Source: Pontiella sp. (GTDB lineage Bacteria; Verrucomicrobiota; Kiritimatiellia; Kiritimatiellales; Pontiellaceae). From it: DNA of 64,000 nt. Numbering within the stretch: position 1 is the first letter of the stretch; each line of letters starts with the position of its first letter. Shown one piece after another: positions 23,634 to 61,782 of this stretch. The translations under genes were made by a program, and so were the position numbers. Below the pieces are notes generated by a model, which was not told the DNA's origin, did no database searches, and saw nothing but the letters and a program-made list of their open reading frames with translations. The DNA is taken from positions 128,001 through 192,000 of the forward strand of contig JBNKHE010000007.1 in the NCBI GenBank assembly GCA_050290185.1, read 5' to 3'.

Positions 23634-23982
23634 AGCAGTCAGGGTGTATCGGTCGCTCTTCGCCACGGTGGAGGGAGGAAAGTCCGGACTCCAAAGGGCA
23701 GGACGTTCCGTGGTTAACGCGGGAACCTCTGTGCGATATCGCAGGGGATGGAAAGTGCCACAGAAATTATACCGCCCCGGCTTGCCGGGGTAAGGGTGAA
23801 ATGGTGGGGTAAGAGCCCACCGCCCCGAGGGCAACCGAGGGGGCAGGGTAAACCCCGTCCGGAGCAAGTTCAAATAGGCGGCGATGATGCGGCCCGCATC
23901 GCCAATAGTCGCGGGTTGAACGCATTAGATAAATGACCGACCCCGCAAGGGGAACAGAATCCGGCTTACCGCCCTGTCTGCT
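23634..23982 (+). ncRNA. rnpB: RNase P RNA, bacterial type A; 3' half (from ~23807) apparently phage-supplied
   Basis: GAGGAAAGTCCGGAC, AGTGCCACAGAA, GGGTGAAA, GGTAAGAG, GGTAAACCCC, GGAGCAAG, AGATAAATG, AACAGAATCCGGCTTA; terminal P1 helix. Confidence 0.97.
23807..23826 (+). repeat. attL core: GGGTAAGAGCCCACCGCCCC
   Basis: 20-bp exact match to 61608-61627; identity with the right end begins here. Confidence 0.85.
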
Positions 23983-23999
23983 TTTTCTATTTTCAAAGT

Positions 24000-24047
24000 A
24001 TAAACGCAACATAAACGCCTTGCGTCGATTGAATATATCAAATATAC
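24000..24047 (+). promoter_or_regulatory. Putative integrase arm-type sites (ATAAACG x2, ATTGAATATA)
   Basis: The same motifs, with the same 11-bp ATAAACG spacing, recur at 61520-61555. Confidence 0.55.
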
Positions 24048-24056
24048 AAAATCGGC

Positions 24057-25130
24057 ATGGCGCTGTTTAAGCAAAAGACCTCTGAAAACTGGTGGATTTC
24101 TGTCTATCGCAAGGGACAGCCGCGCAAGTATGTTCCCACGGGTACGCCGGATCGGGAAAAGGCGGAGGCGATTGAAAAGCTGGTGTTGTCATCGTATCGC
24201 GGCAATCTGGAGCGGGATCGGTTGATTGCGGCGCTCGATTCGCTGATGGGCTGGGATGCGGTTGATGGATTGCCGATTTCGGAACTGTGGTCGACGTATT
24301 TGAAGACGAAGCCCAGGGCGGGTGAGCATACGATCAACCAGCGCCGGCTTATCTGCGAGAAGCTTGTGGCCTACCTTGCGGATCATCATCCGGCTACCCT
24401 GATGCTGAACGAGGTAACCCCGCAGCATGCGCAGGCTTTTTCGGATTGGGTGTTGAATGAAAAGGGCGGGGCCGGAAAGACGCACAACAACCGCATGAGC
24501 AACATAGCCACGGTATTCGGTGCCATTGTGGTGCGGGCAAATCTTCGGAACAATCCTTTCGGGTTTCTCGAAAAGCTGGACGAATCGGACAGCCGGTCGG
24601 GCCGTCCGTTCTCGGCGGATGAACAACGCCGGATCTTCGAGCGGTGCGCGGTGGTAGGTAATGACTGGCTGGCGATCTGCACGCTTGCCAAATATTCCGG
24701 CCTTCGTTTGATCGACATGGCCTTTCTTGCATGGGATCAGGTGGAGGATGATGTGATCGATCTGACCCCATCAAAAACAAAGCGCCACGGAATAAAGGTG
24801 CGGATCCCGCTGCATCCAAACGTGCGCAAGGAACTTCGCCTGCTGGGCCGCAAGGGGGATTATGTTTTTCCGGTGCTGGCCGAGCGGTACAGCACAACGT
24901 CTCCGAAGTCGCAGTTCATGGAAGAGATCATCCGTCCGCTGGGGATCGATATGGATGGCGCGAAGGTTAGTTTCCATTGTTGGCGCCACACATTCAGAAC
25001 GATGCTTGCGGCGGCCAAAGTTCCCCAAGAGGTTGCGATGAAGCTGGGCGGCTGGACCAACCAAAGCACGGCGGAAGTCTACAACCACGACTTTACCCAG
25101 CTTGAAGCGGCCATTGGCGGGTTGGAATAG
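24057..25130 (+). CDS. int: Tyrosine recombinase / phage integrase
   Basis: N-terminal arm-binding-like domain; catalytic R (SGLR), K (KTK), HxxR (HCWRH), W (LGGW), Y (EVY); adjacent to attL. Confidence 0.93.
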   Translation: MALFKQKTSENWWISVYRKGQPRKYVPTGTPDREKAEAIEKLVLSSYRGNLERDRLIAALDSLMGWDAVDGLPISELWSTYLKTKPRAGEHTINQRRLICEKLVAYLADHHPATLMLNEVTPQHAQAFSDWVLNEKGGAGKTHNNRMSNIATVFGAIVVRANLRNNPFGFLEKLDESDSRSGRPFSADEQRRIFERCAVVGNDWLAICTLAKYSGLRLIDMAFLAWDQVEDDVIDLTPSKTKRHGIKVRIPLHPNVRKELRLLGRKGDYVFPVLAERYSTTSPKSQFMEEIIRPLGIDMDGAKVSFHCWRHTFRTMLAAAKVPQEVAMKLGGWTNQSTAEVYNHDFTQLEAAIGGLE

Positions 25131-25139
25131 GAAACTCGT

Positions 25140-25535
25140 TTAAGATCCTCTGCGGATTGATTCCAGGTAGCCGAAAACATTATCTATCGGTTCACCTGAG
25201 TCGACTTCGACGGCTTTTGCTATCCGATCTATTCTGAATGTTCGGACATCCATCCGGAGCATGCAGAATGCGCGGAGTAGGTTGGAGTTTGGATAGAAAG
25301 CAATGGTGTTGATTTCGCGGGATGTTTTTTCGCCATAGACGTCGGTGTAGTTGATCTGGATGTTTCGCTTTTTTACCTGGACCGGCGCTTCACGAATTTT
25401 TGATTCAGATTTTTTCTTTTCAAGCCGGTCCCTGATTCTGCTTTTTAGATTACGGAAAAACAGGATGGTTGAGACCAGTCCGATCAGCGCGAATAGAAGG
25501 ATGATCCCTATCAGGATATTGATGAAAATGTCCAT
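25140..25535 (-). CDS. Membrane-anchored WYL-domain protein
   Basis: ATG overlaps the upstream stop (TAATG) and has SD GGAG; N-terminal TM helix; INYTDVYGEKTSR...LRAFCMLRMDVRTFRIDRI. Confidence 0.75.
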   Translation of the reverse strand: MDIFINILIGIILLFALIGLVSTILFFRNLKSRIRDRLEKKKSESKIREAPVQVKKRNIQINYTDVYGEKTSREINTIAFYPNSNLLRAFCMLRMDVRTFRIDRIAKAVEVDSGEPIDNVFGYLESIRRGS

Positions 25536-26278
25536 TAATACTCCGTCCATGATGTGACTTTTCCGTTCAGCGTGTGGATAAATCGCATGGTATTGCTGAC
25601 GTGGCTGCCAGTGACGTAGACGGATCCGTAACTGTACTGCTTGGTAACACCCATGGAAGAAGTGTGCTCGGTGCAGTCTTTGGGTTTTCCCCATGTTGCA
25701 TAGATTCCAAGTTCCGGCATTCCGACTGCCAGCTTTCCACTCAACAAGGCATCCGAGTATTTTTCCGGAATACCTTTTTCTTGAAGTGCGACAACATACA
25801 TAACCTTTGTGCGTTCAATATCCGGCGTTGCCCCACCGGGCAATACTTTAAATTCGAGCGGGACGTGGCGGTACTGTGGGTGATTAAGCCAAAACAAATC
25901 TTCCGCCAGGTCATACGCATCGGATGTGCTAATCCATTCATTTAGCATTTTTTCCGGCATATTGGCGGCGGCAATGTTCTTAGAACCAAGTGCTTGAATT
26001 TCGGTTTTGCTGTAACCCTTTAACTCCAGCGCTTTTTGAAGGTGGTCTATAAAGCGCGGATCAACCTTGTTTATTTTGGTGATGCGCGGATAGCCGTAGA
26101 CCGTGTAGGTGATGCCGCTGATTCCGTTTTTCAGGTGGTAGTAATCCGATGCGATTTTCCACCCGGGATTATGTTCAACCCAGCCGAAGTTATTGGCCTG
26201 CGATTCGTCGAAACCGATATTCGTTGCGCATCCGGTGAGCAGGATGGCGGTTGCGAGTGCTGCAATGACTTTCTTCAT
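25535..26278 (-). CDS. Lipoprotein (C-terminal BamE/BLIP-like motif)
   Basis: MKKVIAALATAILLTGC lipobox; VGMP...WGKP...NGKVTSW. Confidence 0.7.
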   Translation of the reverse strand: MKKVIAALATAILLTGCATNIGFDESQANNFGWVEHNPGWKIASDYYHLKNGISGITYTVYGYPRITKINKVDPRFIDHLQKALELKGYSKTEIQALGSKNIAAANMPEKMLNEWISTSDAYDLAEDLFWLNHPQYRHVPLEFKVLPGGATPDIERTKVMYVVALQEKGIPEKYSDALLSGKLAVGMPELGIYATWGKPKDCTEHTSSMGVTKQYSYGSVYVTGSHVSNTMRFIHTLNGKVTSWTEY

Positions 26279-26300
26279 GTTGTTCCCCTGATTCTGATTT

Positions 26301-26696
26301 CTATTGATCGGCCACGAAGCCGAATTGCTCCAGTAGCTGAATGGCGAGCTTCTGCTGGGACGCGGTTGCCTTGGTGCGCAGGAAAATCGCGGCACGTTCA
26401 TAAACATCCATGTAAGAAGCAGATTCTTCAGCAAGCCCTTTCATTCCGTTATTCGGAGCTATACTGTAACTGATTTGCAAAAGCTCCAGCAAAGAAATTC
26501 CTGCCAGTTCGGCAATCCTCTCGGCGTTTTCATCATCAATATCCTTCGCGGTGCCTGAGATCCACCGGCTAACGGTGGCATGCGAAACCCCTACAGCTTT
26601 GCCAAAGGTCCGGTGATTAAATTGCCTACCTGCTGAATCGGTGCGTGTGCGTACCATGTTGCCGATAAACTTCTGAAGTGCTGGTGTATTTTTCAT
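26301..26696 (-). CDS. CI-like XRE-family repressor
   Basis: HTH FGKAVGVSHATVSRWISG; divergent from the early lytic operon; no peptidase domain seen. Confidence 0.8.
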   Translation of the reverse strand: MKNTPALQKFIGNMVRTRTDSAGRQFNHRTFGKAVGVSHATVSRWISGTAKDIDDENAERIAELAGISLLELLQISYSIAPNNGMKGLAEESASYMDVYERAAIFLRTKATASQQKLAIQLLEQFGFVADQ

Positions 26697-26784
26697 AATC
26701 TCTCCCGGTTGGTGGCTACGCTTATACCTAATAAAAACAGGGGCTCAATGACAAATGGTTAAAAAAGTTAAAATAAAAACTTGC

Positions 26785-26801
26785 GGTACGCGGTGCGTAC
26801 C
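26785..26801. promoter_or_regulatory. Putative operator palindrome GGTACGC-GGT-GCGTACC
   Basis: Perfect 7-bp inverted repeat between the divergent repressor and cro-like genes. Confidence 0.6.
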
Positions 26802-26834
26802 ACGTAAACCATAACTACCGAAAGGAAATAAATC

Positions 26835-27038
26835 ATGAGCAAAGCCGACACCAAGAAAGCGCAGATCACCAAGCCGATTCTGCTTAAAGAAAAAAACGGC
26901 GAGGTAGCAGCGGTGCACGAAGCCGCCGAGATTCTGGGCATGACATCCGGAACGCTCGCCCGCATGGCCGTACATCTCGGGATGAACACCCCAGAGATGA
27001 AGAACCTCATCGAGAAGGCGAAACACGCCCACGCATAG
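26835..27038 (+). CDS. Small Cro/Arc-like DNA-binding protein
   Basis: First gene of the rightward operon; SD AAGGA; AAEILGMTSGTLARMAV. Confidence 0.6.
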   Translation: MSKADTKKAQITKPILLKEKNGEVAAVHEAAEILGMTSGTLARMAVHLGMNTPEMKNLIEKAKHAHA

Positions 27039-27082
27039 GACTCTCAAAATGATTCTCCTGGTTAACAGCCAACAACACCCCG

Positions 27083-27149
27083 CGCGCGCCGGTCGGCAGA
27101 ATAAATCCGGTTACCCCCTTGGCCGGTTGCCGGTCGGCGCGCGTTTTTT
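27083..27149 (+). terminator. Long hairpin followed by T6 (early terminator/attenuator)
   Basis: CGCGCGCCGGTCGGCA...TGCCGGTCGGCGCGCG, a 16-bp stem with two G-U pairs, followed by TTTTTT. Confidence 0.6.
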
Positions 27150-27167
27150 CCCCAGCACGAGGAAGTC

Positions 27168-27425
27168 ATGAGCATTGAAGAAATCAAAGAGGCGGTTCGG
27201 ACGGTTATCCGCGATGAGATGGTGATGGCTACGGTGGTTCCGGATTTTGCGGGATACGCCTATTTCAAGATTCGTTTTGGGATTGCCCAGCCGACGCTGA
27301 AGAAGCTGGCGGACAACGGGCATGTGCGCCGGAAGAAGGTCGGGGAGGCGGTACAGGCGCAGGCGCTCTACAAGGTGGCTGATGTTGAGGAGTGGTTCGA
27401 GTCGGACAAAGGGGTCGAGGCGTGA
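27168..27425 (+). CDS. Excisionase-like DNA-binding protein
   Basis: FGIAQPTLKKLADNGHV...LYKVADVEEWF winged-helix pattern; SD GAGGA. Confidence 0.55.
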   Translation: MSIEEIKEAVRTVIRDEMVMATVVPDFAGYAYFKIRFGIAQPTLKKLADNGHVRRKKVGEAVQAQALYKVADVEEWFESDKGVEA

Positions 27426-27607
27426 AAAACGAGGAACTAGGCACTGGGCAAGAGGCGCTAGTGGAGTCGGCTGGGGAACGTCTTTACAACCGGATGCGGG
27501 CCGAAACGAGGGGCGGCGTTCCGTGGGCGGAACTGCGTCCGGCGGTGCGTGACGCGATCGAGAAGCACGCCGCGCTTTCCGAGCGCGAGGGAAAGGCGGC
27601 GGCATGA
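27422..27607 (+). CDS. Phage hypothetical protein
   Basis: GTGA/ATGA translational coupling to its neighbours. Confidence 0.5.
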   Translation: MKNEELGTGQEALVESAGERLYNRMRAETRGGVPWAELRPAVRDAIEKHAALSEREGKAAA

Positions 27608-27804
27608 TGAATCTTTCGGTGTGGACGAAGACCAGGTTCCTTGAGCTGCCTTTTGGCAATCGGATCCGCGTCTCGGAGATCCTGCTTGCGGCGGTGCTGG
27701 GGCTTCTGGTGGGGGTGGTTTTCTGGGCGGCGGTTTTCGGGATGGCCTTTTCGGCGGAAGAGCTTTCACCACAGAGGGCACAGAGCAACGCAGAGGGGAA
27801 TTGA
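27604..27804 (+). CDS. Phage hypothetical membrane protein
   Basis: One TM helix; coupled start. Confidence 0.5.
   Translation: MMNLSVWTKTRFLELPFGNRIRVSEILLAAVLGLLVGVVFWAAVFGMAFSAEELSPQRAQSNAEGN
27764..27795 (+). repeat. Dispersed CACAGAG repeat, copy 1
   Basis: TTTCACCACAGAGGGCACAGAG is identical to 32301-32322. Confidence 0.8.
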
Positions 27805-27918
27805 TATACCCACCAATGAGCGAGGGCAGCTGGTGCGCTGATGCCGCGCACCCCGCCCACGGGAACGGCCAACCGTGGGCGGAGTATTCAAGGGATGGTC
27901 GAAGAAAGGGAATGGGAC

Positions 27919-28101
27919 ATGGTGAACGATAAGATTCGTTGTTTGATGAGCGATCCGGAGCACTGCGACTTCGAAGAACTTCCGGATACGGGTGGGCGCC
28001 GGTGTTCGCTTGAACACGGCATGTGCCATCAACAGGAGCCGCACAGCAGAGGGAACGGTAAACCTGTTGATTACCACGCACGGAAGGCGGTGCAGCTGTG
28101 A
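27919..28101 (+). CDS. Small Cys-rich phage protein
   Basis: Four Cys; stop overlaps the next start (GTGA). Confidence 0.45.
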   Translation: MVNDKIRCLMSDPEHCDFEELPDTGGRRCSLEHGMCHQQEPHSRGNGKPVDYHARKAVQL

Positions 28102-28721
28102 TCAACGAAGCAACCATTCAGGCAAACCGCGAATACATTATTATTCGCCTCAAGGAGATCAACCGCGTAGGGATGCCGGGTCTGATTCAGGAACTTGATG
28201 ACCTTGGCTTTTTCCGTTCGCCGTGTTCCACCAAATACCACGGGGCCTACACGGGCGGTTTGGCCCAACACTCATTGGATGTGTTTGGCAAGTTCGTTGA
28301 GCTTACGAGCCTGTGCGGTGTGTTCGTGCCGGCTGATTCGGCGGTGATTGCGTGCATCCTTCACGATCTATGCAAAGCCGGTGCCTACGTTGGCAATGCC
28401 TATCCCTACACCTACCGCAAGGAACACCCCAATGGACACGCGGCGCTTTCGTTTCATCGGATTTCAAAGTTCATCGAACTGACCCCGCTCGAATCGGATT
28501 TGATCCGCTATCACATGGGTCTTTACGGCACCCACGCCCACAGCGTCCGCGGCGAGTACGGGGTCGATGAGTTCATGGCCGCACGGGAAAACCCGGCTGT
28601 AAAGCTGATGTGCTTTGCCGATGAGCTGGTGACGCTTCAGGAGAAGGCGACCGAAAAAGAGCACATCGAAAAATATGGATCCCTGCTTCCGGCGGAGATG
28701 GTTAACGGGCGGGAGGGATAG
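28098..28721 (+). CDS. HD-domain phosphohydrolase
   Basis: SPCSTKYHGAYTGGLAQHS, LHDLCK, GH, IRYHMG, FAD. Confidence 0.85.
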   Translation: MINEATIQANREYIIIRLKEINRVGMPGLIQELDDLGFFRSPCSTKYHGAYTGGLAQHSLDVFGKFVELTSLCGVFVPADSAVIACILHDLCKAGAYVGNAYPYTYRKEHPNGHAALSFHRISKFIELTPLESDLIRYHMGLYGTHAHSVRGEYGVDEFMAARENPAVKLMCFADELVTLQEKATEKEHIEKYGSLLPAEMVNGREG

Positions 28722-28723
28722 CC

Positions 28724-28849
28724 ATGAAGGGGGAAACCACGAAAAACACGAAGGACACGAAAAAAGACCCGGCTTTCGTGATCAGGTTTGTTGATACCTC
28801 CGGCGCAACCCATGACCTGTATCGCAAGATTTTCAGAAGGCAAGGCTGA
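28724..28849 (+). CDS. Small phage protein (41 aa) containing CACGAA repeats
   Basis: SD GGAGG; stop overlaps the next ATG; below the ORF-track length cutoff. Confidence 0.4.
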   Translation: MKGETTKNTKDTKKDPAFVIRFVDTSGATHDLYRKIFRRQG

Positions 28850-29040
28850 TGCCGGATCGATCGAACATGCCAAAGACGGGGCGGTGCATCGTTTGTGAAA
28901 CGGTGGGAGCGGTTGCCGGCACAAACGCCAACGGAAGGCCGCTTTGCCAAGGGTGCATCGACTACATGAACGGGGAACACCTGAAACGCACGGTTCCGAA
29001 CAAGCGCGGGTATGGGATGAAGAAAGGGGAAGCAGCATGA
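28849..29040 (+). CDS. Small zinc-finger-like phage protein
   Basis: CIVC...CQGC. Confidence 0.5.
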   Translation: MPDRSNMPKTGRCIVCETVGAVAGTNANGRPLCQGCIDYMNGEHLKRTVPNKRGYGMKKGEAA

Positions 29041-29204
29041 GCACGAAGGAAATTATAGATAGGCCGCTATCAGAAAAAACGCTCAATCGGATTGAGAATG
29101 GAAAGGTTGAATTTTTGACGGTATGGCCAATATGCCAGCCTCTCGCGCCAAGGCACATCGCTTCCAAAAGACTAATGGATATAGTGACTGGCGGTGTGAA
29201 ATGA
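29037..29204 (+). CDS. Phage hypothetical protein
   Basis: ATGA coupling at both ends. Confidence 0.45.
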   Translation: MSTKEIIDRPLSEKTLNRIENGKVEFLTVWPICQPLAPRHIASKRLMDIVTGGVK

Positions 29205-30961
29205 GTCCACAAGCGGGATTTGGGTTTCTGGATGAATGGCGGACGGAATCAAAACCAGTTGCGAAAGATGGCGAGTTGGTGGTGGATCTGTTTTGCGGCG
29301 GCGGCGGGGCATCGGTCGGGATCGAGGAAGCGATCGGAACTGCGGTAGACATCGCAATTAACCACTCAAAAGATGCGATCTACTACCACGAGCGGAACCA
29401 TCCGACCACGGAGCACTACACTACCGATGTCTTTGACGTGAATCCGCTGGGCGCAACGCGCGGTCGACCGGTGGGACTGCTTTGGCTTTCTCCGGACTGT
29501 ACGCACTTTTCAAAGGCGAAGGGCAAAGCCCCGAAAAAGAAGAACATTCGTAGCTTGGCTACAGTGGGTCTTTGGTGGGCGCGCCTTGTTCGCCCGCGGG
29601 TGATCGTGCTGGAGAACGTCGAAGAGTTCATGACGTGGGGCCGGCTGGACAAGCGGACCAACCAGCCAGACAAACGCAAGAGCGGCGAATATTTCCACAA
29701 GTTCGTGCGCCGGCTGGAACAGCATGGCTACCAGGTTGAATGGCGTGTACGCAAAGCATGCGACCGAGGAGCCCCGACAATCCGCAAACGGTTCTATCTG
29801 GTTGCGCGGTGCGATGGTGAGCCGATTGTATGGACAAAGCAGACGCACGGCAAACGCCGCGGCCTGAAGCCATATCATACCGCTGCCGAGTGCATTGACT
29901 TCAGCAAGCCGGCGGTTTCCATCTTCGCCACAAAAGAAGAGTGCAAAGCGGCTGGAATCCGCGCGGTGCGCCCATTGGCGGACAACACCATGCAGCGGGT
30001 TGCTCGCGGGGTCTGGAAATACGTCATCGACAATCCGGATCCGTTTATCGTTCCGCCCGGGAAGATGCCCTTCATCACGGAGATGGCGAACGGTTCAAGC
30101 CAGCGCAACATGCCGGCGGATGAACCGCTTCGGACTGTATGCGCCCAGGTCAAGGGCGGTCACTTTGCCTTGGTAGATGCGCTCCTTGAAAAGCACGCGC
30201 CGGCGGAAGTTCAAAGCGCCTTCATTGCGAAGAACTATACCGGAGTGACCGGTACCGACCTACGCGCGCCGCTGGGGGCCGTCACCGGTATTGATCATCA
30301 TTCATTGGTTGCCTGCCATCTGGAGCGGATGCACGGAACGGCGAAGGGCGATCCGATAACCGAGCCGATCGGGGCAATTCTGGCGGATGGGTTGCACCAC
30401 GGGCTCGTGGCCTGCCATCTGGAACAGATGAACGGGGAAAGTACCGGGCTCTCTGTAAATGATCCAATCACGGCCATTACCGCCCAGGTGAACAAGCACG
30501 CTTTGGTTACCTCGCACCTGATGAAGTACCACAAGACGCAGGGCAATGAATCGCGGTGCCATGATCTGCGTGAGCCCATGCCGACGGTGGACGGAAGCAA
30601 CCGGTTTGCCGAGGTCCGCGCGTTCCTCATCAAATACTATGGGCAGGGATGCGGGCAGATCATTGACGGCCCGATCGGCACCATTACCGCACAGGACCGC
30701 TTCGGGTTGGTTCTGGTGAAGGGAGAGCTTTACCGGATCGTGGATATCCTTCTGCGCATGCTCGATCCCGACGAGCTGCTGAAGTGCCAGTTCGGGCGCT
30801 TTGCCGACGGCTACCAGATTGACGGACTCACGAAAACCAAAGCGGTGAAGATGATTGGGAACAGCGTATGCCCGACCGAAGCCTATGACATCGTGAAGGC
30901 CAATTTTAAGCGGAAATCGGCGCGGCAGCTCCAGGCGGCAGAAGAGGCGGTGGCGGCGTGA
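29201..30961 (+). CDS. DNA (cytosine-5) methyltransferase
   Basis: DLFCGGGG, SPDCTHFS, LENVEEF, RKRFYLVA, IGNSVCP. Confidence 0.93.
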   Translation: MSPQAGFGFLDEWRTESKPVAKDGELVVDLFCGGGGASVGIEEAIGTAVDIAINHSKDAIYYHERNHPTTEHYTTDVFDVNPLGATRGRPVGLLWLSPDCTHFSKAKGKAPKKKNIRSLATVGLWWARLVRPRVIVLENVEEFMTWGRLDKRTNQPDKRKSGEYFHKFVRRLEQHGYQVEWRVRKACDRGAPTIRKRFYLVARCDGEPIVWTKQTHGKRRGLKPYHTAAECIDFSKPAVSIFATKEECKAAGIRAVRPLADNTMQRVARGVWKYVIDNPDPFIVPPGKMPFITEMANGSSQRNMPADEPLRTVCAQVKGGHFALVDALLEKHAPAEVQSAFIAKNYTGVTGTDLRAPLGAVTGIDHHSLVACHLERMHGTAKGDPITEPIGAILADGLHHGLVACHLEQMNGESTGLSVNDPITAITAQVNKHALVTSHLMKYHKTQGNESRCHDLREPMPTVDGSNRFAEVRAFLIKYYGQGCGQIIDGPIGTITAQDRFGLVLVKGELYRIVDILLRMLDPDELLKCQFGRFADGYQIDGLTKTKAVKMIGNSVCPTEAYDIVKANFKRKSARQLQAAEEAVAA

Positions 30962-31188: not shown

Positions 31189-31190
31189 GC

Positions 31191-32149: not shown

Positions 32150-32151
32150 TC

Positions 32152-32804: not shown

Positions 32805-32834
32805 CCAATGGGATGAACAGGAAAGGGAAAAGCA

Positions 32835-53360: not shown

Positions 53361-53363
53361 CCA

Positions 53364-54776
53364 ATGGCCTATCCCGTCTTCCCGTTCCGGATCGATTACA
53401 CGAGCAACATTACGATCCGCTGGAAAAATGCCCAGCTTCCGCACGAAATTTCCCCGGCGCCGCTTGGATTTTCAGATGGGGTCCAGACAGCCCGCAAGCG
53501 CGCATTCGGGGTTTCGGCCAGGGTAAAAACCGGCGCGCATGTCGACATCCTAGAATCATTCTTTGCCGATATCGGTTGCGATCCGTTCTGGCTTCCGGAT
53601 CTGCCGCGCGAAATATCATCCTTCCAGCAGATCAGCGATACCGTGCTTGAGGTTGATGGGTTCGACCTTACGGCATTCATGCAGAACCAGAACGCCTATT
53701 CGTTGATTTTACGGCCTCACGGGTCGGCGGATCCGGTCATCGCCGCCGTTCAGTCCGTTGAACGGGTTGGCGGTAAAGACCGCATCACCCTTGCCGCCGC
53801 GTATCCCGGGCTACCGACTCCGGATGAAGCGGAAATTTGTTTTTCATCGCTGGTGGTTATCGATTCGGATTCGGTCAAGTTTGATCCGGAAACCTCTACA
53901 TTCTGGAGGGTATCATTCACGGCAATCGAGCAACCATTCGATCCGGAGCCAAGCCGTCAGATTTACTATTGCTACGCGTTCAGCTGCACCGACCATCTGG
54001 GCAACTCGCGGGTGCATCGGCACACGACCGATGCCGACAGCCGCAACATCGGGGCCGATGCCTATGAGCCGCACGACATCATGCACAGCGGCCTTGAGCA
54101 TGGCCGGCTGACGTCCGACAACAAATGCACCATATCGCTGCGCGCGGTGCCGGGCGGGGTCTTTGCAACATGGAAGCCCCGGGCCATCGAGCCGCCAGTA
54201 CTGGTCACCGTCTACAAAGTCGAGGTCGTCGCCGGAATCGATCAGGCCGCCGTGACGGAATTTTCCGGCGAATGCGCGCAAATCATGCGGCAAGGGGATT
54301 TGATCGAGGCCACGTTCCGTTCCAATGCGCTCAACCAAAAAATTCCAAATTTCTTGGTTTCAGTGCGCGACAACGCCGATCCGTGGGAAACACACGATCC
54401 GGAACTATTCACCGTCGACGCCGTGGTGCTGCTGGTCGAGTTCGACCGGATCTATTTGACCATTGCGGACGCCGCCAACGTCGACGAATTGCCCGGCGGT
54501 CATTTGGTGATCGAAACCGCCGGCCTCGCCGTGGTCCGCGATATCCTGTCGATCACATCCATCGGCGGCGATGGCTATGTGGCGCGCATAAACTACAGCA
54601 TCGAGGGCGTCGGCGTTGGCGATCCATGCACCTGCTACTTTGGCTATGACGGCTCTCCGGAAACATACGTGCGTCTTTTCGGTAGCCTGGAAGGCTTTGG
54701 TGGACACCCGCGGCTCCCAGCCCAAAATCCGACGTTCAAGGCCATCAACGTGACAACATCCGGAGGCAAGAAATGA
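53364..54776 (+). CDS. Baseplate hub / tail tip protein
   Basis: FWLP N-terminus; C-terminal GYDG...FGGHP.LP..NP as in GTA-like hub proteins. Confidence 0.6.
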   Translation: MAYPVFPFRIDYTSNITIRWKNAQLPHEISPAPLGFSDGVQTARKRAFGVSARVKTGAHVDILESFFADIGCDPFWLPDLPREISSFQQISDTVLEVDGFDLTAFMQNQNAYSLILRPHGSADPVIAAVQSVERVGGKDRITLAAAYPGLPTPDEAEICFSSLVVIDSDSVKFDPETSTFWRVSFTAIEQPFDPEPSRQIYYCYAFSCTDHLGNSRVHRHTTDADSRNIGADAYEPHDIMHSGLEHGRLTSDNKCTISLRAVPGGVFATWKPRAIEPPVLVTVYKVEVVAGIDQAAVTEFSGECAQIMRQGDLIEATFRSNALNQKIPNFLVSVRDNADPWETHDPELFTVDAVVLLVEFDRIYLTIADAANVDELPGGHLVIETAGLAVVRDILSITSIGGDGYVARINYSIEGVGVGDPCTCYFGYDGSPETYVRLFGSLEGFGGHPRLPAQNPTFKAINVTTSGGKK

Positions 54777-55204
54777 CGTTCGAAGAAAGGATCGTGGAAA
54801 GCGCACGGCGGTGGATTGGGCTTCATGCCCCATTTGCCCCGCATGGCCGTTCCGAGCGCTATGGAATCGATTGTGTAAACCTTGCCCACGTCATCTACAC
54901 CGAAGCTGGAATGAATCTTCCAGACCTTCCGCGCCGCTATTTCATGGACTCCAGCCGGCACCAGACCGACCAGACCGTCATGGATTGGATCGAATCAATC
55001 GGCTCTTTTCAGGAAATACCGCTGGCTGAAAGCTATCCGGTCGGCACCCTGCTTTGCGCCGACATCGGCCGATCGCCTTACCACGTTGCCATTGTGATCG
55101 ACAACGCCCACGCCGTCCACAGCATCCGCCGCGCTGGGGTTTGCTGCGTGGCCTATGGAACCGAAATCAAAAAAATCACCCACGCATTCAAGCCAATCCA
55201 ATGA
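54773..55204 (+). CDS. NlpC/P60 tail-associated peptidase
   Basis: ARRWIG..P...GIDC...HVAI...HS. Confidence 0.85.
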   Translation: MTFEERIVESARRWIGLHAPFAPHGRSERYGIDCVNLAHVIYTEAGMNLPDLPRRYFMDSSRHQTDQTVMDWIESIGSFQEIPLAESYPVGTLLCADIGRSPYHVAIVIDNAHAVHSIRRAGVCCVAYGTEIKKITHAFKPIQ

Positions 55205-57582
55205 GTTCTGGAACCAACAAGGAATATGTATCCGGTTACCCGCGGAAATTGGGGAACATCGATTTCGAGCGCGTGTCTACCAACCAGGAGGGTGTTGCCC
55301 TTCCGGTGGTTCAGGGGACGGCCCGGCTCGGAGTGACGTGGCTTGATGGCGCCAAAAACGTAAATGCCTATGCAGTTAAGGTAAAGGTCGGAAAAAGCAA
55401 GGAAACGGTAGGCTACAACTACTATGCCGATATGGCCGGCGTGATTTGTCTTGGCCCGGTCGACCGGCTGCTGGCGGTCTACTCGGCGGAAGAAACCATA
55501 TGGTCGGGCGATTTGACCGACCCCGGCACGGGCTATGTCAACATCCAGACCACCGTCGGAAATGCGCGGTTCCGGTTTGGAACACCAAACCAGACCATTA
55601 GCGGCTATGTACTTGATCCGGCAAAACACCCCGGCTACCAGAACCAGGCGATCATCGAATTTAAACAAATGTTTTTTGGCCGCGATACCACCAACGCGCG
55701 GCAGATTGAAGTGCTGATAGTCCGTGCCGTGCCGGATGCGGACATGATCGATGATCGTTCCATCAATGCCGCCGCCGCGCTGCGCGAAGTGGTCTCAAAT
55801 TCGTTGTGGGGGGCCGGGCAAAACCTACCGCTTTCCAATGTTCAAACGGTGCAGGATCAACTTGCGGAGGATGCCATTGGGATGTCGTTCAATTTGAACA
55901 GCATCGACGATGCGGAAAAAGTGGTTGAAGCGATCATTGATACATTCAACGGCGATCTTGTTTGGGAAAAAACAAGCGGGGAATACATCCTGAAGCAGGG
56001 ATACCGCCCGCCGGCCAATACGGCAATACTCCCGGTTATCATGGCTGCCCAGTGCACATCCTTGCCAAAAACAAAAATAAAAGCCTACGTCGACCAGCCC
56101 GGCGAATTGCGGATGAACTACATCAACCGCGCCCGCAACTTCAACGACGCCCAGGTTCTGAAACGCTCGCAAGGGCATAGATTGCTGAACGGCATTCGAA
56201 AAACAACCACACTTGAGCGGCAGGAGATCGATAATACGGCGACGGCGCTGAAATTGCTCGCGCAGGCCATGGTTCAAATGTCGCTTCCGGCAGCCGAAGG
56301 TTCATTCGAAATTCGTGCGGTCGACGCGGAAACGGTCAACATCGCCGACTGGTTTTGGCTGGAGCTATGGACCGGGGCTGATTTGACCATGTGCCGGTGC
56401 ACCAGCAAAAAGCAGGCAGATGCATTTTCCCGCGACGTTGCGATCGAATACGAAGCCGACTCCACGCGCTGGGCCTACACCGGCGCCGCCGGCGGCGCCG
56501 CATACACACCGCCGGATCTTCCGGAATACCTACCCGAAACACACATCTTCCAGCAGCTCATCGAGACGCCGCGCTTTATGTCGACCGGAATCGACCTGAT
56601 TACCGCCGTTGGGCGCGCCCACAGCCTGATAGTCGGTTTCACGCCATACTTTGCCCTCGATGCCGACCCGACCTATTCAACCGCCTTGAAAATAGAAAAT
56701 TCGGCGGTAAACCATTTCGGCCTGCCTGTTGAAGTGAAGAACGCAACCGGGACCGCAACGGATCTTGTGGTCACCCCGCTCAACAACGATGTGACGGAAT
56801 ACGAAAGCGTTGCCGCCGCCGCCCAGCAAGCCGGAGAGCTGCTGCTGTTCATCGGGGACGAAATAATCTCCTTGCGCGACCTGTTCATCAACGGAAATGA
56901 TTTGGAGCTAGACAGTACGTTGCGCGGGTTCGGCGATACCAAGCCGAAAAACCATGCAGCAGGGGCGCAGGGAATCATCATTTACGCCGCCGAAGCCTTT
57001 AGGATCAACCCGGCTCCAGGTGAAACCACGAACCGGAACATCAAGCTCCCAGCCGAAACGCTGCTGGCGGTGCAGGATCTTGATGAAGTCGACCCGATCC
57101 CATGGGTATCCGAACTTCGGATAAATCGTCCGCTCAATATATCGGCGCTCACCATCGAAGGAGAAGTGTTGCCGAAACCGGCGCACCACTACAATTTGGC
57201 CGATTATGATCTGGTATCAACCCCGGCATGGAACGCCTCTGTTTCAATGACCGTGGCAAAACAGGACTGGTCGAGCCTGGGATTCATCTCGGCAAATTTC
57301 TACACAGCCGCCGACCTCTACACCCGCGTCCGTGCCTACGGAGCCGACGAAGTAACCTTGATCGGCGACACCAGCAGCGCAAACGCGACATTTTCCGTAC
57401 CGCTTGCATCCGAAGGCCACGCAACCGGACATCTCGAAATAACCACCTATCACCCCGATACGCCAGAACTGGAAAGCCAAGTTGCTTTGCGGATCGACAT
57501 AACCTTCGGAACGCCTGGCTACGCGGTAGACGCGAACGGCGACTTTGCAATCGATGGAAACGGCGATTACGCCACAGAATAG
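55201..57582 (+). CDS. Central tail fibre / tip protein
   Basis: Large ORF after NlpC/P60; P.V.GT.R...GYNYYA...CLGPV, RGFGDT...H.AG. Start set at ATG 55201. Confidence 0.75.
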   Translation: MSSGTNKEYVSGYPRKLGNIDFERVSTNQEGVALPVVQGTARLGVTWLDGAKNVNAYAVKVKVGKSKETVGYNYYADMAGVICLGPVDRLLAVYSAEETIWSGDLTDPGTGYVNIQTTVGNARFRFGTPNQTISGYVLDPAKHPGYQNQAIIEFKQMFFGRDTTNARQIEVLIVRAVPDADMIDDRSINAAAALREVVSNSLWGAGQNLPLSNVQTVQDQLAEDAIGMSFNLNSIDDAEKVVEAIIDTFNGDLVWEKTSGEYILKQGYRPPANTAILPVIMAAQCTSLPKTKIKAYVDQPGELRMNYINRARNFNDAQVLKRSQGHRLLNGIRKTTTLERQEIDNTATALKLLAQAMVQMSLPAAEGSFEIRAVDAETVNIADWFWLELWTGADLTMCRCTSKKQADAFSRDVAIEYEADSTRWAYTGAAGGAAYTPPDLPEYLPETHIFQQLIETPRFMSTGIDLITAVGRAHSLIVGFTPYFALDADPTYSTALKIENSAVNHFGLPVEVKNATGTATDLVVTPLNNDVTEYESVAAAAQQAGELLLFIGDEIISLRDLFINGNDLELDSTLRGFGDTKPKNHAAGAQGIIIYAAEAFRINPAPGETTNRNIKLPAETLLAVQDLDEVDPIPWVSELRINRPLNISALTIEGEVLPKPAHHYNLADYDLVSTPAWNASVSMTVAKQDWSSLGFISANFYTAADLYTRVRAYGADEVTLIGDTSSANATFSVPLASEGHATGHLEITTYHPDTPELESQVALRIDITFGTPGYAVDANGDFAIDGNGDYATE

Positions 57583-57591
57583 GAGAAAACC

Positions 57592-58029
57592 ATGGCATAC
57601 GACATCGGCCCGAACACATGGGCAAAAGTGAAAGCGTTCTTCGACCTGATAAGCGCTATTGCAGCTGGAAAAGTCACGCTCGGCGGAGCCTTGGATTTAA
57701 CCACAGACCCGACCGGAGGCGATGGAGTTGGAAACCGCGACTACAACGATGCGCGCTACGCGACCGCAGCGCAAGGAGGTTTGGCGGATACGGCGCTGCA
57801 GCCCGCCGACGTTGGCACCGCCGCCGCCCAAGACGTCGGCTATTTCGCGACCGCAGCGCAGGGAGGTCTGGCCGATACAGCGCTGCAGCCCGCCGACGTC
57901 GGTACCGCAGCCGCTCAGGACGTCGGCGCTTTTGTGCCGACAGACGGCTCCGTCTCATCCATCACATTTTCGAACGGCGCAAAGCTGGAAATTTCCGGCA
58001 GCACACTGGTCATCACCGCCGCGCCCTAG
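57592..58029 (+). CDS. Tail-fibre-like protein with 29-aa tandem repeat
   Basis: ATAAQGGLADTALQPADVGTAAAQDVG twice (87-nt period, from 57760). Confidence 0.65.
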   Translation: MAYDIGPNTWAKVKAFFDLISAIAAGKVTLGGALDLTTDPTGGDGVGNRDYNDARYATAAQGGLADTALQPADVGTAAAQDVGYFATAAQGGLADTALQPADVGTAAAQDVGAFVPTDGSVSSITFSNGAKLEISGSTLVITAAP

Positions 58030-58062
58030 TTGACACGTCCTGCCCAATAGGAGGCTATACCC

Positions 58063-60216
58063 ATGAAAAATAGAAAATCACTTGTTGTCACACTGATTGC
58101 TTTGTTGTTCGCGCTGCCGTCATTTGCGGCCAGCCTTAACCAAATATTCAACACCAGCCCATCTCCCATCACCAACAACAACGATGGAGTCAGCCAGTTG
58201 ATCAAAGTCAAAGGATCTTTGGCCGAAAACGACGTGCTCGTCTACGACGGCCTTGGAAACGTTGTTTCCGCCGGAGTCTCACCTACCAACTTGGTTGTTT
58301 CTAGCAACAGCTACACCAAGGCGGAATCAGACGCGCTTATTGCCACAAAAACCGATTCCGTTTCAAACGCGCTGTCTGTCGTGATCGGGTTTAAGCAAAA
58401 CGCCAACACGGCCAACGCCAACAACGCCACGCTCGCACAGGGCGATTTGGCAGATTCCTCTATCCAGCCTTCCGACCTGCTTTATACGGCCCAACTTGAT
58501 GGGTTGCAGCAACTGCTTACCTCGTCTGTTGGAACGAATGCAATTGCCACGTATGGTAAAAATGCCGAAATCATCAGTGTTAATTGCTTGGATTTCGATG
58601 GGACAAATTCATACGTGAAAATGCCATTCACCACGGATGTAGGAGCGTCCGACTTTTCATTCCACTGTACAATCAACCCGGATATTGTATCGGGCGCTGC
58701 CAAAACGATTTTTTCCCACGGAGAGGTATCAAGCAACAGCAGGAGTTGCTGGGTGGTATTAGCAAATGGCCTTTTATCCACTAGGCTTAGCGCCGACGGG
58801 ACGGCACAAACTGAAGTTATTGGCGGGACCGCGGTGCCAACAAATACATGGACTTCGTTATCCGCATACAAGACTGGATCCAGCATATTCTACTATTACA
58901 ACGGATCCCTTAATCTGGCGGGTACGACCGTATCGTCTCTTCGCAATTCTGGCGGCTACGCATACACAGGATCACGGTACTCAGGAACGGCGATGGACTA
59001 CCCATTCAACGGAAAAATATCGGATGTACACCTCGATATTCTTCCAACAACGCTCGATGTATATCTCTATATTGGACAATCGAATTGCGAGGGTAATCCA
59101 GGGGAGTATGGAACACTGCCGACCATTTTGCAGGGGGAAAACTTCCCGTTCTTCGAAGCCTCAATAAACCATGGGACGCAAACCAAGCGCGGAACCTTTC
59201 TCAAGCCGTTCAATTCCACGCAATGGGGGGCTGAGCTTGTATTTGGACAGGTTATCACCCAGCGTGCACAAAAGCGCATTGCAATTGTAAAGGTATCTAC
59301 TGGAGGTACTTCGCTGGCCGTTGATTGGCAGCCAGGGGGAGAGCAGTACACCCAACTAACAAACGCATGGGCAAATTTCGAGACTGACATGGCATCGGCT
59401 GGATATACGATTGGTGATGTGCGCGGGATTTGGATGCAAGGCGAGAAAGACGCCCAATCGAACTTGTGGGCGAATGCTTATGTCGAGAACTACGACAACA
59501 TGAATGCAAGCTTCGAAAACGATACTGGCGTAGAACTGGTAAATACCACATTTTGCCGCATAAACGACGAGGGCAACCCCGGGTCGGACAGAGTACGCGC
59601 AGCATTGGTTGAGCTTGGCAACCGACCGGGAAATACATGGATAGATACGGACTCGATGCCGCGTCGTCCAGACGGCGTGCACCTTGACCCCGATGGGTTG
59701 CAAGCTCTTGGTACGGCCATCGGCAATGCCGTTGTTGTCAATGCGGCAAACAATGCAGATCCGGTTTTCTGGAATGTTTATTCAGAAGGATCATCGACCA
59801 ATATTTACGACGTGTCCGGCAATACCAATACCGGCACCGCAGTCAGTGCATCATGGACAACATCCAGCGGAATCGAATCTTGGAACCACCTAAAAGGGTG
59901 GAGCATGAGAGGTGCAACGGATGCATATATACCGGCGTTATACAATCTTTCCGGAGACGCTTCTGGCGGTGCGCTACAGCACCTTGGCGGGTTTGTCCAC
60001 AACGGGAGCGAGTGTGACTTAATACTCTGGGATGGGTCCACCAACACCTACGTCAACCTACTGGAGTCGTCGTCCTACGCCTCTAATAGCGACCCAACAA
60101 ATCGGTACTCATCGGTTGGAACGGGCGGAAGAATAACGACATTTGCGGCATATACCAACAACCTTCCGGTTGCGTCGGATACCAGGCTGAAGGGCTTCTT
60201 GGAGTTGCAGAAGTGA
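58063..60216 (+). CDS. Signal-peptide-bearing LamG + SASA (SGNH carbohydrate esterase) protein
   Basis: Signal peptide ...ALPSFA; LamG LDFDGTNSYV...FNGKISDV; SASA GQSN, WMQGEKD, DGVH. Confidence 0.8.
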   Translation: MKNRKSLVVTLIALLFALPSFAASLNQIFNTSPSPITNNNDGVSQLIKVKGSLAENDVLVYDGLGNVVSAGVSPTNLVVSSNSYTKAESDALIATKTDSVSNALSVVIGFKQNANTANANNATLAQGDLADSSIQPSDLLYTAQLDGLQQLLTSSVGTNAIATYGKNAEIISVNCLDFDGTNSYVKMPFTTDVGASDFSFHCTINPDIVSGAAKTIFSHGEVSSNSRSCWVVLANGLLSTRLSADGTAQTEVIGGTAVPTNTWTSLSAYKTGSSIFYYYNGSLNLAGTTVSSLRNSGGYAYTGSRYSGTAMDYPFNGKISDVHLDILPTTLDVYLYIGQSNCEGNPGEYGTLPTILQGENFPFFEASINHGTQTKRGTFLKPFNSTQWGAELVFGQVITQRAQKRIAIVKVSTGGTSLAVDWQPGGEQYTQLTNAWANFETDMASAGYTIGDVRGIWMQGEKDAQSNLWANAYVENYDNMNASFENDTGVELVNTTFCRINDEGNPGSDRVRAALVELGNRPGNTWIDTDSMPRRPDGVHLDPDGLQALGTAIGNAVVVNAANNADPVFWNVYSEGSSTNIYDVSGNTNTGTAVSASWTTSSGIESWNHLKGWSMRGATDAYIPALYNLSGDASGGALQHLGGFVHNGSECDLILWDGSTNTYVNLLESSSYASNSDPTNRYSSVGTGGRITTFAAYTNNLPVASDTRLKGFLELQK

Positions 60217-60248
60217 GTAAATCAGCACGTGCTTGAAAGGGGGGTATA

Positions 60249-60503
60249 ATGCCTGAACATGTTAAGGTAAGCGCAGTGAGTGCCGTGGTCGGCGTATTCA
60301 TCACGTTCGGATCAATATTCATCGCCACCGGAAGCTACCGCCAAAAACTGGATGATACCTCCAAGGAAATTGTTCAGCACCGCGCGGATATAATTGCTTT
60401 GTATACCACGTCGAAGGGACTTGAGCACGACATCCAGGACATCAAGCAGATGCAGCAGGAATCCCGCGCGGACATAAAGACCCTGTTGATCAGAACAAAA
60501 TGA
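60249..60503 (+). CDS. Small TM + coiled-coil protein (lysis region)
   Basis: N-terminal TM helix; C-terminal DIKTLL. Confidence 0.55.
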   Translation: MPEHVKVSAVSAVVGVFITFGSIFIATGSYRQKLDDTSKEIVQHRADIIALYTTSKGLEHDIQDIKQMQQESRADIKTLLIRTK

Positions 60504-60541
60504 TTTCCGGCAATGGGGCCGGGATTAGTGGAGGTCAAAAA

Positions 60542-60826
60542 ATGAAGAAAAAGTTTAGCATGCTGATGGTATTGGCCGTTCTTGCCCTGGTGATGGCGGC
60601 TATGCCGTCGTTCGCCCAGGACGCGGGTGCCGAGGCCGTTGCCAGTGCATCGGATGGCGGCCTCTTGGCGTGGTTGTCCCGGAACATGGGCGCGGTGTTC
60701 GGAATCGTAACGGCAACGCTCGGGGTTCTGGCGATGGTCTGCAAGCTGACACCATCGCCGAGGGACGACGCAATCGTCGCCAAAATCCTTGGCTGGCTCA
60801 ACATGTTGCCGGTGAAAAGGCAGTAG
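60542..60826 (+). CDS. Holin-like membrane protein
   Basis: Hydrophobic helices; KLTPSPRDD motif; SD GGAGG. Confidence 0.55.
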   Translation: MKKKFSMLMVLAVLALVMAAMPSFAQDAGAEAVASASDGGLLAWLSRNMGAVFGIVTATLGVLAMVCKLTPSPRDDAIVAKILGWLNMLPVKRQ

Positions 60827-60827
60827 C

Positions 60828-61193
60828 ATGTTGAAGGCTGCTCTACTCGCATTGCAGGAGTGGCTGCACTGGCGGCGCGTCATGGCTGAGATCCAGGCGC
60901 GCCGCTTGGTTTTGACGGAGCTTGAGCGCGTCGAAAGGGAAATCGATGAAATCGAAGACGATATCGAAAAGCATCGCCGCAATGGCGATCATGCTGATGC
61001 TGACCGGTTGCTTCTCGCAATCTCGCGTAGAGCCTGTTTTGAGCGGGGGATACTTGACCTTGCGGAAGGGGCAGGTTTTCACCGCTCGGAAAGACTGCGT
61101 TTTGGTGGATCTGGAGATCGTGGAGCAGAAGGACGCGATAATCATCGATCTGATCCGGTCGCAACGGAAGCAGGAAGTGAAGCAGCTGGTTGA
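60828..61193 (+). CDS. Possible i-spanin (Rz-like) coiled-coil protein
   Basis: Coiled coil; hosts an overlapping lipoprotein ORF; weak N-terminal TM. Confidence 0.4.
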   Translation: MLKAALLALQEWLHWRRVMAEIQARRLVLTELERVEREIDEIEDDIEKHRRNGDHADADRLLLAISRRACFERGILDLAEGAGFHRSERLRFGGSGDRGAEGRDNHRSDPVATEAGSEAAG

Positions 61194-61197
61194 ATGA
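60946..61197 (+). CDS. Possible o-spanin (Rz1-like) lipoprotein
   Basis: Lipobox MLTGC; almost fully nested in another frame of 60828-61193; SD AAGGGA. Confidence 0.55.
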   Translation: MKSKTISKSIAAMAIMLMLTGCFSQSRVEPVLSGGYLTLRKGQVFTARKDCVLVDLEIVEQKDAIIIDLIRSQRKQEVKQLVE

Positions 61198-61442
61198 AAG
61201 CAATTACACTGTTCATTTTAATGTCGATCACCGGATGTGCAACGCGCGTCACAACCTGCACATGGGGTCCGGATCCCGGGAAAAACATCCTCAAAAAAAC
61301 CACGGTAAGCCATTCATGGTGGCTTGGTTTGCCAGCAATTGCACCGATGGATTCATCCGTTAAAGACGGAGAGTTCCAAGTCGAAACAAGAGCAATGAAA
61401 GTCCCGGACGGATGGTTCGGCGTCTACCGGGATCAAAACTGA
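61194..61442 (+). CDS. Small lipoprotein
   Basis: MKAITLFILMSITGC lipobox; last phage gene. Confidence 0.65.
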   Translation: MKAITLFILMSITGCATRVTTCTWGPDPGKNILKKTTVSHSWWLGLPAIAPMDSSVKDGEFQVETRAMKVPDGWFGVYRDQN

Positions 61443-61471
61443 TTTAGCTGGGCTCCTCCTCTCTCCCGGCG

Positions 61472-61502
61472 GCCTCCCTTGCTTCGGCGAGGGAGGTTTT
61501 TT
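61472..61502 (+). terminator. Rho-independent terminator at the end of the late operon
   Basis: GCCTCCCTTGC-TTCG-GCGAGGGAGGT plus T run. Confidence 0.85.
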
Positions 61503-61519
61503 ATTTCTCAGCATTGTAT

Positions 61520-61555
61520 ATAAACGAAATATAAACGGATATATATTGAATATAC
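61520..61555 (+). promoter_or_regulatory. Putative integrase arm-type sites (right arm)
   Basis: ATAAACG at 61520 and 61531, ATTGAATATA at 61545; match the left-end motifs. Confidence 0.55.
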
Positions 61556-61607
61556 GAAATACAGCGCAAAAACACCATAAAACAGCGTTTTTGATCCGAT
61601 TGTTTTA

Positions 61608-61782
61608 GGGTAAGAGCCCACCGCCCCAAGGGTAACCGAGGGGGCAGGGTAAACCCCGTCCGGAGCAAGATCAAATAGGGAATCGAGGAACGGCCCGTTC
61701 CGCAGGGGTTCCGGGTTGATCGCACTAGATAAATGATCGACTCCGCAAGGAGAACAGAATCCGGCTTACCGCCCTGACTGCT
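61608..61782 (+). pseudogene. rnpB: attR: displaced native 3' half of rnpB (L13 to the P1 3' strand)
   Basis: Homologous to 23807-23982; lacks the 5' half; ends CCCTGACTGCT, exactly complementary to the host 5' end AGCAGTCAGGG. Confidence 0.93.

Follow-up and report, generated by a model that had tools for sequence, protein, structure and literature searches.

Integration into genes for transfer RNA (tRNA) and transfer-messenger RNA (tmRNA), with repair of the 3' end, is textbook knowledge. In E. coli, phage 21 and e14 integrate within icd and supply a divergent 3' end of ~165 bp. Here we describe a 64-kb stretch of Pontiella sp. DNA (64,000 nucleotides (nt) of contig JBNKHE010000007.1, hereafter the window) in which a temperate tailed phage has very probably integrated into the body of rnpB, the gene of the RNase P ribozyme, joining the host's 5' half of the gene to a 3' part that the phage brought with it. 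Another structural RNA gene, ffs (4.5S RNA), serves as the integration site of Enterococcus phage phiEf11, with a core of 27 nt (PMC12540744). In the accessible part of that paper, tRNA/tmRNA and csRNA are given as the known non-coding targets and ffs is called novel; rnpB is not given as a target there, and RNase P occurs only in the list of Rfam models and in the references (PMC12540744).

The class with which the rnpB element was compared consists of the tyrosine-integrase elements in tRNA and tmRNA genes, as described in the accessible portions of the relevant sources (Williams 2002, sublocation classes; Islander/TIGER; PMC4383910, PMC12424338). As far as those portions go, the two share the following features. 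A tyrosine recombinase is encoded at one end of the element, beside the restored gene. The direct repeat corresponds to the 3' portion of the RNA gene and stops where the gene stops, with the displaced fragment at the opposite end of the element. The identity block begins at a dyad of stem, 7-nt loop and stem, the arms carry repeated motifs, and the uninterrupted site is found in related genomes of other species. The nearest relatives of the integrase also target tRNA genes. In contrast to the class, the target here is the RNase P ribozyme gene, and the phage copy is only 84% identical to that of the host and leaves a mismatch in P1. In addition, the closest relative restores 40 nt, whereas 117-175 nt, a third to half of the RNA, would be restored here. 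The rnpB element therefore appears to work like the tRNA/tmRNA-gene family while lying outside its usual target class.

The comparison with the other two systems is similar. As with phage 21 and e14, the insertion lies well inside an important gene, and a slightly divergent alternative 3' end would keep that gene functional. However, the icd differences are in a protein-coding gene and are largely silent, while those in a catalytic RNA need compensation in helices. As with phiEf11, a structural RNA gene other than a tRNA gene would be the bacterial attachment site (attB) of a temperate phage, although the 27-nt core in the 4.5S RNA gene differs from the divergent duplication of 179 nt in rnpB (PMC12540744). 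What sets the rnpB element apart is the target, the depth of the cut (mid-gene) and the replacement by a divergent half-ribozyme; the mechanism itself is known. Full-text literature searches, with supplements outside their reach, returned no description of rnpB as an attachment site, nor of an essential catalytic RNA cut mid-gene and completed by a divergent phage half. The authors of the initial annotation of this DNA, made from its letters, likewise knew of no characterised example. In the accessible text of papers that pair "RNase P RNA gene" with integrase, rnpB serves only as a phylogenetic marker, and it is not mentioned in the accessible text of the TIGER/Islander announcement and the Integrase-On-Demand paper.

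The coordinates of the locus are collected in Table 1. When the whole window was searched with cmscan, RF00010 (RNaseP_bact_a) was the sole Rfam family above threshold, with a full match of 244.7 bits (E 1.9e-78) at 23636-23984 on the forward strand. No tRNA or tmRNA gene was found in the window. The match covers model positions 1-367, exceeds the gathering cut-off of 100 bits and contains the P4 strands and both domains, which identifies the gene as type A RNase P RNA. P18 is absent both from this gene and from the rnpB genes of relatives, which score 212-256 bits. A repeat search of 23000-62500 yielded two pairs of direct repeats, 23807-23878/61608-61679 (96% identical, spacing 37,801) and 23912-23985/61712-61785 (92% identical, spacing 37,800). 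In the pairwise alignment, both blocks belong to one homology of 179 nt with a strongly diverged middle (23879-23911), and 150 of the 179 positions (84%) are equal between the copy within the full gene (proximal) and the far copy (distal). The homology of both copies stops at the T-run of rnpB. With cmscan aimed at 61300-62000, the distal copy is a 5'-truncated RF00010 match (71.4 bits, E 1.3e-21) whose true homology extends from about model position 161 to 367. The 3.58-Mb assembly (95.5% complete, 163 contigs) contains only one full rnpB.

These results confirm the full gene and the second copy of its 3' half that the initial annotation had described, apart from coordinates that were off by 2-3 nt, and its expectation of one full and one 3'-partial Infernal match held. 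The duplicated part of P13 comprises a piece of the 5' strand (23807-23809), the loop and the 3' strand. It is followed by P14, the 3' strands of P11, P10, P7 and P5, P15-P17 and the 3' strand of P2, and the repeat ends with a small P19-like hairpin, the 3' strands of P4 and P1 and the T-run. The helices listed earlier need two corrections: the duplication begins in the P13 stem, so that the P13 loop and 3' strand are included, and P18 is absent. The phage-supplied part, earlier put at about half of the ribozyme, runs from 117 to ~175 nt according to the crossover assumed.

Table 1. Features of the rnpB locus and the element inserted in it (positions within the window).
Feature	Position	Strand	Basis
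CT398-like zinc-ribbon protein, usual left neighbour of rnpB	22846..23556	+	profile match, synteny
Full rnpB (type A, no P18), apparent chimera	23636..23984	+	cmscan; covariation
rnpB segments by probable origin	23636-23806 host; 23807-23868 either origin; 23869-23985 phage-borne	+	covariation
P13 stem-loop, dyad GTGGG-N7-CCCAC, favoured crossover/core (attB B-O-B')	23804..23820	+	dyad count, relatives' T-arm
Left prophage junction (attL) copy of 179-nt repeat	23807..23985	+	repeat search, alignment
Longest block identical in both copies, 36 nt; alternative crossover interval	23833..23868	+	alignment
P' arm module: ATAAACG at 24000, 24011; TTGAATATA at 24029	24000..24037	+	motif count
Tyrosine integrase, 357 amino acids	24057..25130	+	PF00589 5e-14; phrog_1 2.5e-43
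Leftward lysogeny-side genes: WYL-domain protein (25140-25694), helix-turn-helix regulator (26301-26696), unknowns	25140..28117	-	profile matches
Early/replication-side genes: C5 and N6/N4 DNA methylases, peptide deformylase, FtsK-gamma protein, deoxynucleoside monophosphate phosphatase, unknowns	28098..40029	+	
Packaging/head genes: small terminase TerS (40203-40829), large terminase TerL, gpA type (40826-42643), lambda-family portal (42890-44338), S49 protease (44335-45153), major head protein (45682-46581)	40203..46581	+	
Tail/late genes: tape measure (50482-52809), NlpC/P60 (54773-55204), tail protein (55054-57582), SASA-esterase/lectin fibre (58063-60216), small late open reading frames (ORFs) up to 61442	46590..61442	+	
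Terminator-like stem and T-run, 3' of last phage ORF (end 61442)	61473..61503	+	read from sequence
P arm module: ATAAACG at 61520, 61531; TTGAATATA at 61546	61520..61554	+	motif count
Right prophage junction (attR) copy, displaced rnpB 3' part, probably the host's own rightwards of the crossover	61608..61785	+	repeats, cmscan, P1 pairing
NarL-type response regulator, usual right neighbour of rnpB	61784..62449	-	profile match, synteny

The DNA between the two copies has a unit length of 37,801 bp and is a complete-looking tailed prophage of siphovirus type, whose integrase gene starts 72 nt past rnpB. A lambda-like tailed temperate phage was recognized by a TerL with gpA ATPase and nuclease, a lambda-family portal, an S49 protease, a major head protein and a tape measure, all of which are present (PF05876, PF20454, PF05136, PF01343, phrog_283 and tape-measure phrogs).

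The empty site is preserved in relatives. The 22 rnpB loci available from the same genus, all from other species, were searched with the flanking proteins of the window and with the integrase. In 17 of these loci, of which one is truncated at the end of its contig, rnpB lies immediately next to the NarL-type gene, and the order is phosphoribosyltransferase, zinc-ribbon protein, rnpB, NarL-type gene on the opposite strand and permease (-). The remaining five (G013, G008, G020, G050 and G064) have another right-hand neighbour, and the integrase is at rnpB in none of the 22. Because rnpB and the NarL-type gene are contiguous in most relatives and the integrase is absent from all of these loci, the prophage sits exactly between rnpB and its ancestral neighbour. 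The initial annotation had predicted that prophage-free relatives would have rnpB next to the NarL gene, and this held.

Base pairing indicates which of the two copies is the host's own. At the P15 pair 23869/23920, the proximal copy has T-A where the distal copy has A-T, and the pair 23942/23951 of the small hairpin covaries, being C-G in one copy and T-A in the other. The P16/P17 hairpins differ at ~20 positions while keeping the same architecture (-21.1 and -22.1 kcal/mol). Since the differences are compensated within each copy, both copies descend from working genes, and the compensated pairs leave no room for a crossover between 23869 and 23920. In P1, base 4 pairs with its 3' partner in Watson-Crick fashion in 20/20 relatives (15 G-C, 5 A-T). 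In the working gene, however, the host T at 23639 faces a T at 23977, a U.U mismatch that cmscan flags as non-canonical, while the distal copy has an A. As a result, the 11 nt of P1 form an unbroken duplex with the distal strand (-20.1 kcal/mol), whereas the duplex with the proximal strand contains a break (-16.1 kcal/mol). Because the host 5' strand fits the distal and not the proximal P1 strand, the distal fragment would be the original 3' end of the host gene, and the working 3' end would have come with the phage. The pairing evidence thus shows the working rnpB as a predicted host-phage chimera that is foreign at least from 23869 to 23985, and it supports the earlier proposal that the phage uses rnpB as attB and carries its own 3' part.

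In line with a foreign origin, the proximal 3' part shares 93% identity with rnpB from another species of the genus (G006) but only 84% with the distal copy. The rnpB of G006 has the same GTTC/GAAC P15 and the same type of hairpin, with A-T at P1 base 4. Across the relatives, similarity in the 5' half does not correlate with similarity to either 3' copy (Spearman -0.15 and -0.11), and the similarity ranking is therefore uninformative on the position of the crossover.

Further evidence comes from the sequences that flank the rnpB segment. On both sides lies a module of the form ATAAACG-N4-ATAAACG with TTGAATATA 8-11 nt later. Together, the modules hold 4 of the 10 ATAAACG words of the window and both of its TTGAATATA words; for the latter, 0.22 matches are expected in the window, and two were reached in 4 of 100 shuffles. 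The shared modules can be read as the arm-type integrase sites of a single phage attachment site (attP). We infer that this attP comprised ~61517-61607, the 179-nt rnpB part and the sequence of 23986-24045.

Related integrases were found at 36 loci, of which 24 come from metagenomes, 8 from IMG/VR, 3 from genomes in GTDB and one from the genus itself, and an Rfam scan covered 30 of them, that is, all except the metagenome loci L071, L080, L082 and L084-L086. A tRNA gene (Met, Leu, Pro, Gly, Ser or an Arg-Met pair) lies just upstream of the integrase gene in 13 of the 30, and three more loci (L044, L036 and L078) show tRNA-like 3' fragments by eye. In L044 (54% integrase, ~2390-2415) and L036 (45%, ~2895-2920), the fragment lies ~100 nt upstream of the integrase gene and resembles a T-loop, acceptor strand and CCA with a G3.U70-compatible acceptor, of tRNA-Ala or tmRNA type. 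It is present without a full gene, as expected of attP or attR sites. The initial annotation had raised the possibility of homologous integrases beside rnpB in other genomes, and this was not borne out: rnpB was beside the integrase in none of the 30 scanned loci.

The closest relative of the integrase (58% identical) is in genome G007 of the same genus, 112 nt after tRNA-Leu(GAG). An exact repeat of 40 nt occurs 38.3 kb downstream, starting one base before the T-stem GTGGG / loop / CCCAC, and paired motifs, GCCTACG and CCGATATA, are present on both arms. As judged from its sequence, the G007 element has the same anatomy as the rnpB element with a conventional target. The TerL of the phage described here was not found in G007, and the two elements therefore share the integrase module only.

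Taken as a mechanism, these observations suggest that a temperate tailed phage of 37,801 bp would integrate into the body of rnpB by means of its own tyrosine integrase, at a point between the P13 stem-loop and the junction before P15. Such a point lies in the specificity domain or at that junction, ~175 nt, or no less than 117 nt, from the 3' end of rnpB. The phage attP would hold a version of the rnpB 3' part that belongs to the phage and reaches as far as the terminator T-run, flanked by two arms with repeated integrase-type motifs. Recombination would then link the host promoter and 5' half to the phage 3' part, making attL the only functional rnpB, and would move the host's own 3' part 37.8 kb away to attR, beside the NarL-type gene. 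The integrase presumably catalyses the event, and the chimeric RNase P RNA is predicted to be active.

Two intervals are the main candidates for the crossover. Strand exchange is slightly more likely than not to have taken place in the 7-nt loop of P13, which would act as a look-alike of a tRNA T-arm. On the left, the homology begins at 23807, within the P13 5' strand, and the dyad GTGGG-N7-CCCAC is present a single time in the window (0.09 expected). In the G007 element, this dyad forms the T-arm where the att identity begins, and in L078 it starts the tRNA-like fragment. Moreover, the P arm module lies 51-85 nt to the left of the dyad, a distance similar to those in G007 and L078. The shared dyad, the edge of the repeat and the arm distance favour exchange in the P13 loop. 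Exchange in the identical block 23833-23868 is possible, if rather unlikely. With either interval, the phage would supply at least 23869-23985, and thereby P15-P17 and the 3' strands of P2, P4 and P1.

Assembled reads bear on the same question. Logan contigs were mapped on 23000-25000. They come from four runs of a single study that may have supplied the assembly, and so lend no independent support to the junctions. In contig X2-12 (5,817 nt), the last 760 nt lie on 23807-24566 and the first 5,057 nt match nothing in 23000-25000. It thus contains the rnpB 3' part and the integrase gene without the rnpB 5' half, as an attP would. The contig has exactly 14 differences, 12 in the integrase gene and two that give distal-type bases at 23827 and 23832, after which the sequence is of proximal type. 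This assignment rests on depth sums and the count, and the contigs are not phasable through the 36-nt shared block. Were X2-12 a genuine attP, it would be explained most simply by a crossover in 23833-23868. Alternatively, it could be a variant phage or a graph chimera formed through the 36-nt block. The breakpoints of short Logan contigs at 23807 and a loose end of 10 nt are compatible with either interval.

Several observations weigh against integration as outlined here. The comparison genomes are all of other species, and we infer both attB and attP. The rnpB site is a single instance among the scanned relatives of the integrase. Within the four runs, no Logan contig bridges 23806/23807 with 31 nt on each side, and the distal-type bases of X2-12 at 23827/23832 are explained better by exchange in 23833-23868 than by exchange in the P13 loop. 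Lastly, G006, which has the proximal-type hairpin, is among the closest relatives of the host in the tree of flanking proteins, and that feature taken alone would be compatible with a native origin of the hairpin.

The more likely of two alternatives takes up this last point and places the crossover far towards the 3' end of rnpB, to the right of 23920 (within 23921-23976, with the identical run 23926-23936 as one candidate). The working gene would then be native almost throughout, P15-P17 arm included, and most of the distal 179-nt piece would be a relic carried by the phage, from the left of the attP crossover, with no restoring role. The covariation is compatible with such a position, as it rules out only crossovers between 23869 and 23920 and right of 23977. 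A crossover there would also leave ~90 nt between the P' arm module and the core, a spacing shared with the G007 element, and would fit the hairpin of G006, a near relative by its flank proteins. However, it leaves unexplained why a phage would retain over 110 nt of rnpB on the upstream side of the crossover. The homology has its left edge precisely at the dyad of the integrase family, with the P arm at the family's usual distance, and X2-12 joins the proximal-type hairpin to non-rnpB DNA at 23807. In addition, three scattered lineages of the genus have this hairpin, a distribution that a mobile allele would show. Overall, we regard a crossover at the 3' end as improbable. A mis-assembly or strain chimera, in which the partial copy stems from the rnpB of another organism, is very improbable: while the assembly is in 163 contigs, the many related rnpB genes of the community fragment the Logan contigs, and genomes G010 and G018 show contig breaks caused by rnpB in such assemblies, both junctions here lie on one long contig with the ancestral neighbours flanking a complete prophage, the distal 3' strand is the exact complement of the host's unusual P1 5' strand, the identical blocks of at most 36 nt are shorter than reads, and matching arm motifs stand beside both copies.

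Integration in mid-rnpB by way of a phage-borne 3' part has consequences for the host and the phage. In every lysogen, phage DNA would have to provide P15/L15, the site that binds the tRNA 3' end, together with the 3' strands of P4, P2 and P1. The chimera, with its foreign P15-P17 arm and the U.U mismatch in P1, would amount to a natural experiment on the modularity of RNase P RNA. The same core dyad in a different RNA offers a concrete route by which an integrase could be retargeted. It is possible, though doubtful, that an integrase of the tRNA clade was retargeted through the P13 dyad and that such phages ferry rnpB 3' modules between species, repeatedly re-making the ribozyme as a mosaic. 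If the retargeting is real, the price for the phage is to carry up to half of a ribozyme.

The distribution of the hairpin bears on such movement. The proximal-type P16/P17 hairpin is present in 3 of the 22 relatives (G006, G068 and G001), and in a tree of the two left-flank proteins the monophyly of these three was rejected (approximately unbiased (AU) test, p = 0.0023). The AU test concerns a grouping picked post hoc after the first tree, with G001 represented by 26% of the columns, and a tree of two genes rather than of species. The distribution fits horizontal movement of an rnpB module, possibly by such phages, without showing it. On the practical side, phage-borne halves could confound the use of rnpB both as a phylogenetic marker and as a reference for quantitative PCR, and island finders limited to tRNA and tmRNA genes will miss such elements.

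Further instances were sought in genomes and phage collections. A 25-nt word from the rnpB 3' part that is conserved in the genus had no match in IMG/VR. A survey with RF00010 of 151 genomes of the same class overlooked the known partial copy of this very genome and consequently says nothing on prevalence. In the DNA survey of the genus, second rnpB matches occurred only in G010 and G018. Neither was retained as a prophage: the match in G018 is an exact 99-nt contig overlap, and that in G010 comes from two overlapping haplotype contigs, both with the NarL-type gene. A blastn search with rnpB against 50,697 phage records gave six matching records, of which three were rejected as attP sites since they hold full rnpB genes and look bacterial.

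Some of these matches are worth recording in their own right. The faecal virome scaffolds L100 and L101 (MT835553.1 and MT836823.1, 'UNVERIFIED Bacteriophage sp.') carry full rnpB genes of 288 and 294 bits, flanked in a Pfam scan by the housekeeping genes NIF3, YaaA, ROK and RNase II, and look like bacterial contamination of the virome. Microcystis phage MaAM05 (MW495066.1, 273.9 kb, 'complete genome') contains an unannotated type-A rnpB of 251.8 bits at ~115284-115683 (L102 1846-2245), with engB and mtgA among its annotated neighbours. Either this record includes bacterial DNA or a jumbo phage encodes its own rnpB. In G033, a genome of another family of the same order, a second copy of the 3' end of its own rnpB (73 nt, 99%) occurs at C33:46334-46406 (L061 ~16335-16407; L060). 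This copy is on another contig, starts at the stop codon of a HAD-hydrolase gene 250 nt from the contig end and stands behind a GH38 mannosidase gene cluster and a regulator; the 16 kb upstream showed no integrase. The second copy may mark the distal end of an rnpB island split over contigs.

Within the prophage itself, the peptide deformylase (PF01327, 1.5e-24) at 32346-32804 is an auxiliary gene. A 33-nt element beginning with CTTTCACCACAGAGGGCACAGAG occurs four times between early prophage genes, always on the + strand (27763-27795, 32300-32332, 35998-36030 and 36490-36522), and may be a phage promoter or operator word. Three structural genes contain in-frame tandem or near-tandem duplications: units of 87 nt in a tail gene (57759-57932), units of 67 nt lying 180 nt apart in the ORF after the head protein (46849-47095), and lysine-rich units of 45 nt at the start of the small terminase (40236-40325).

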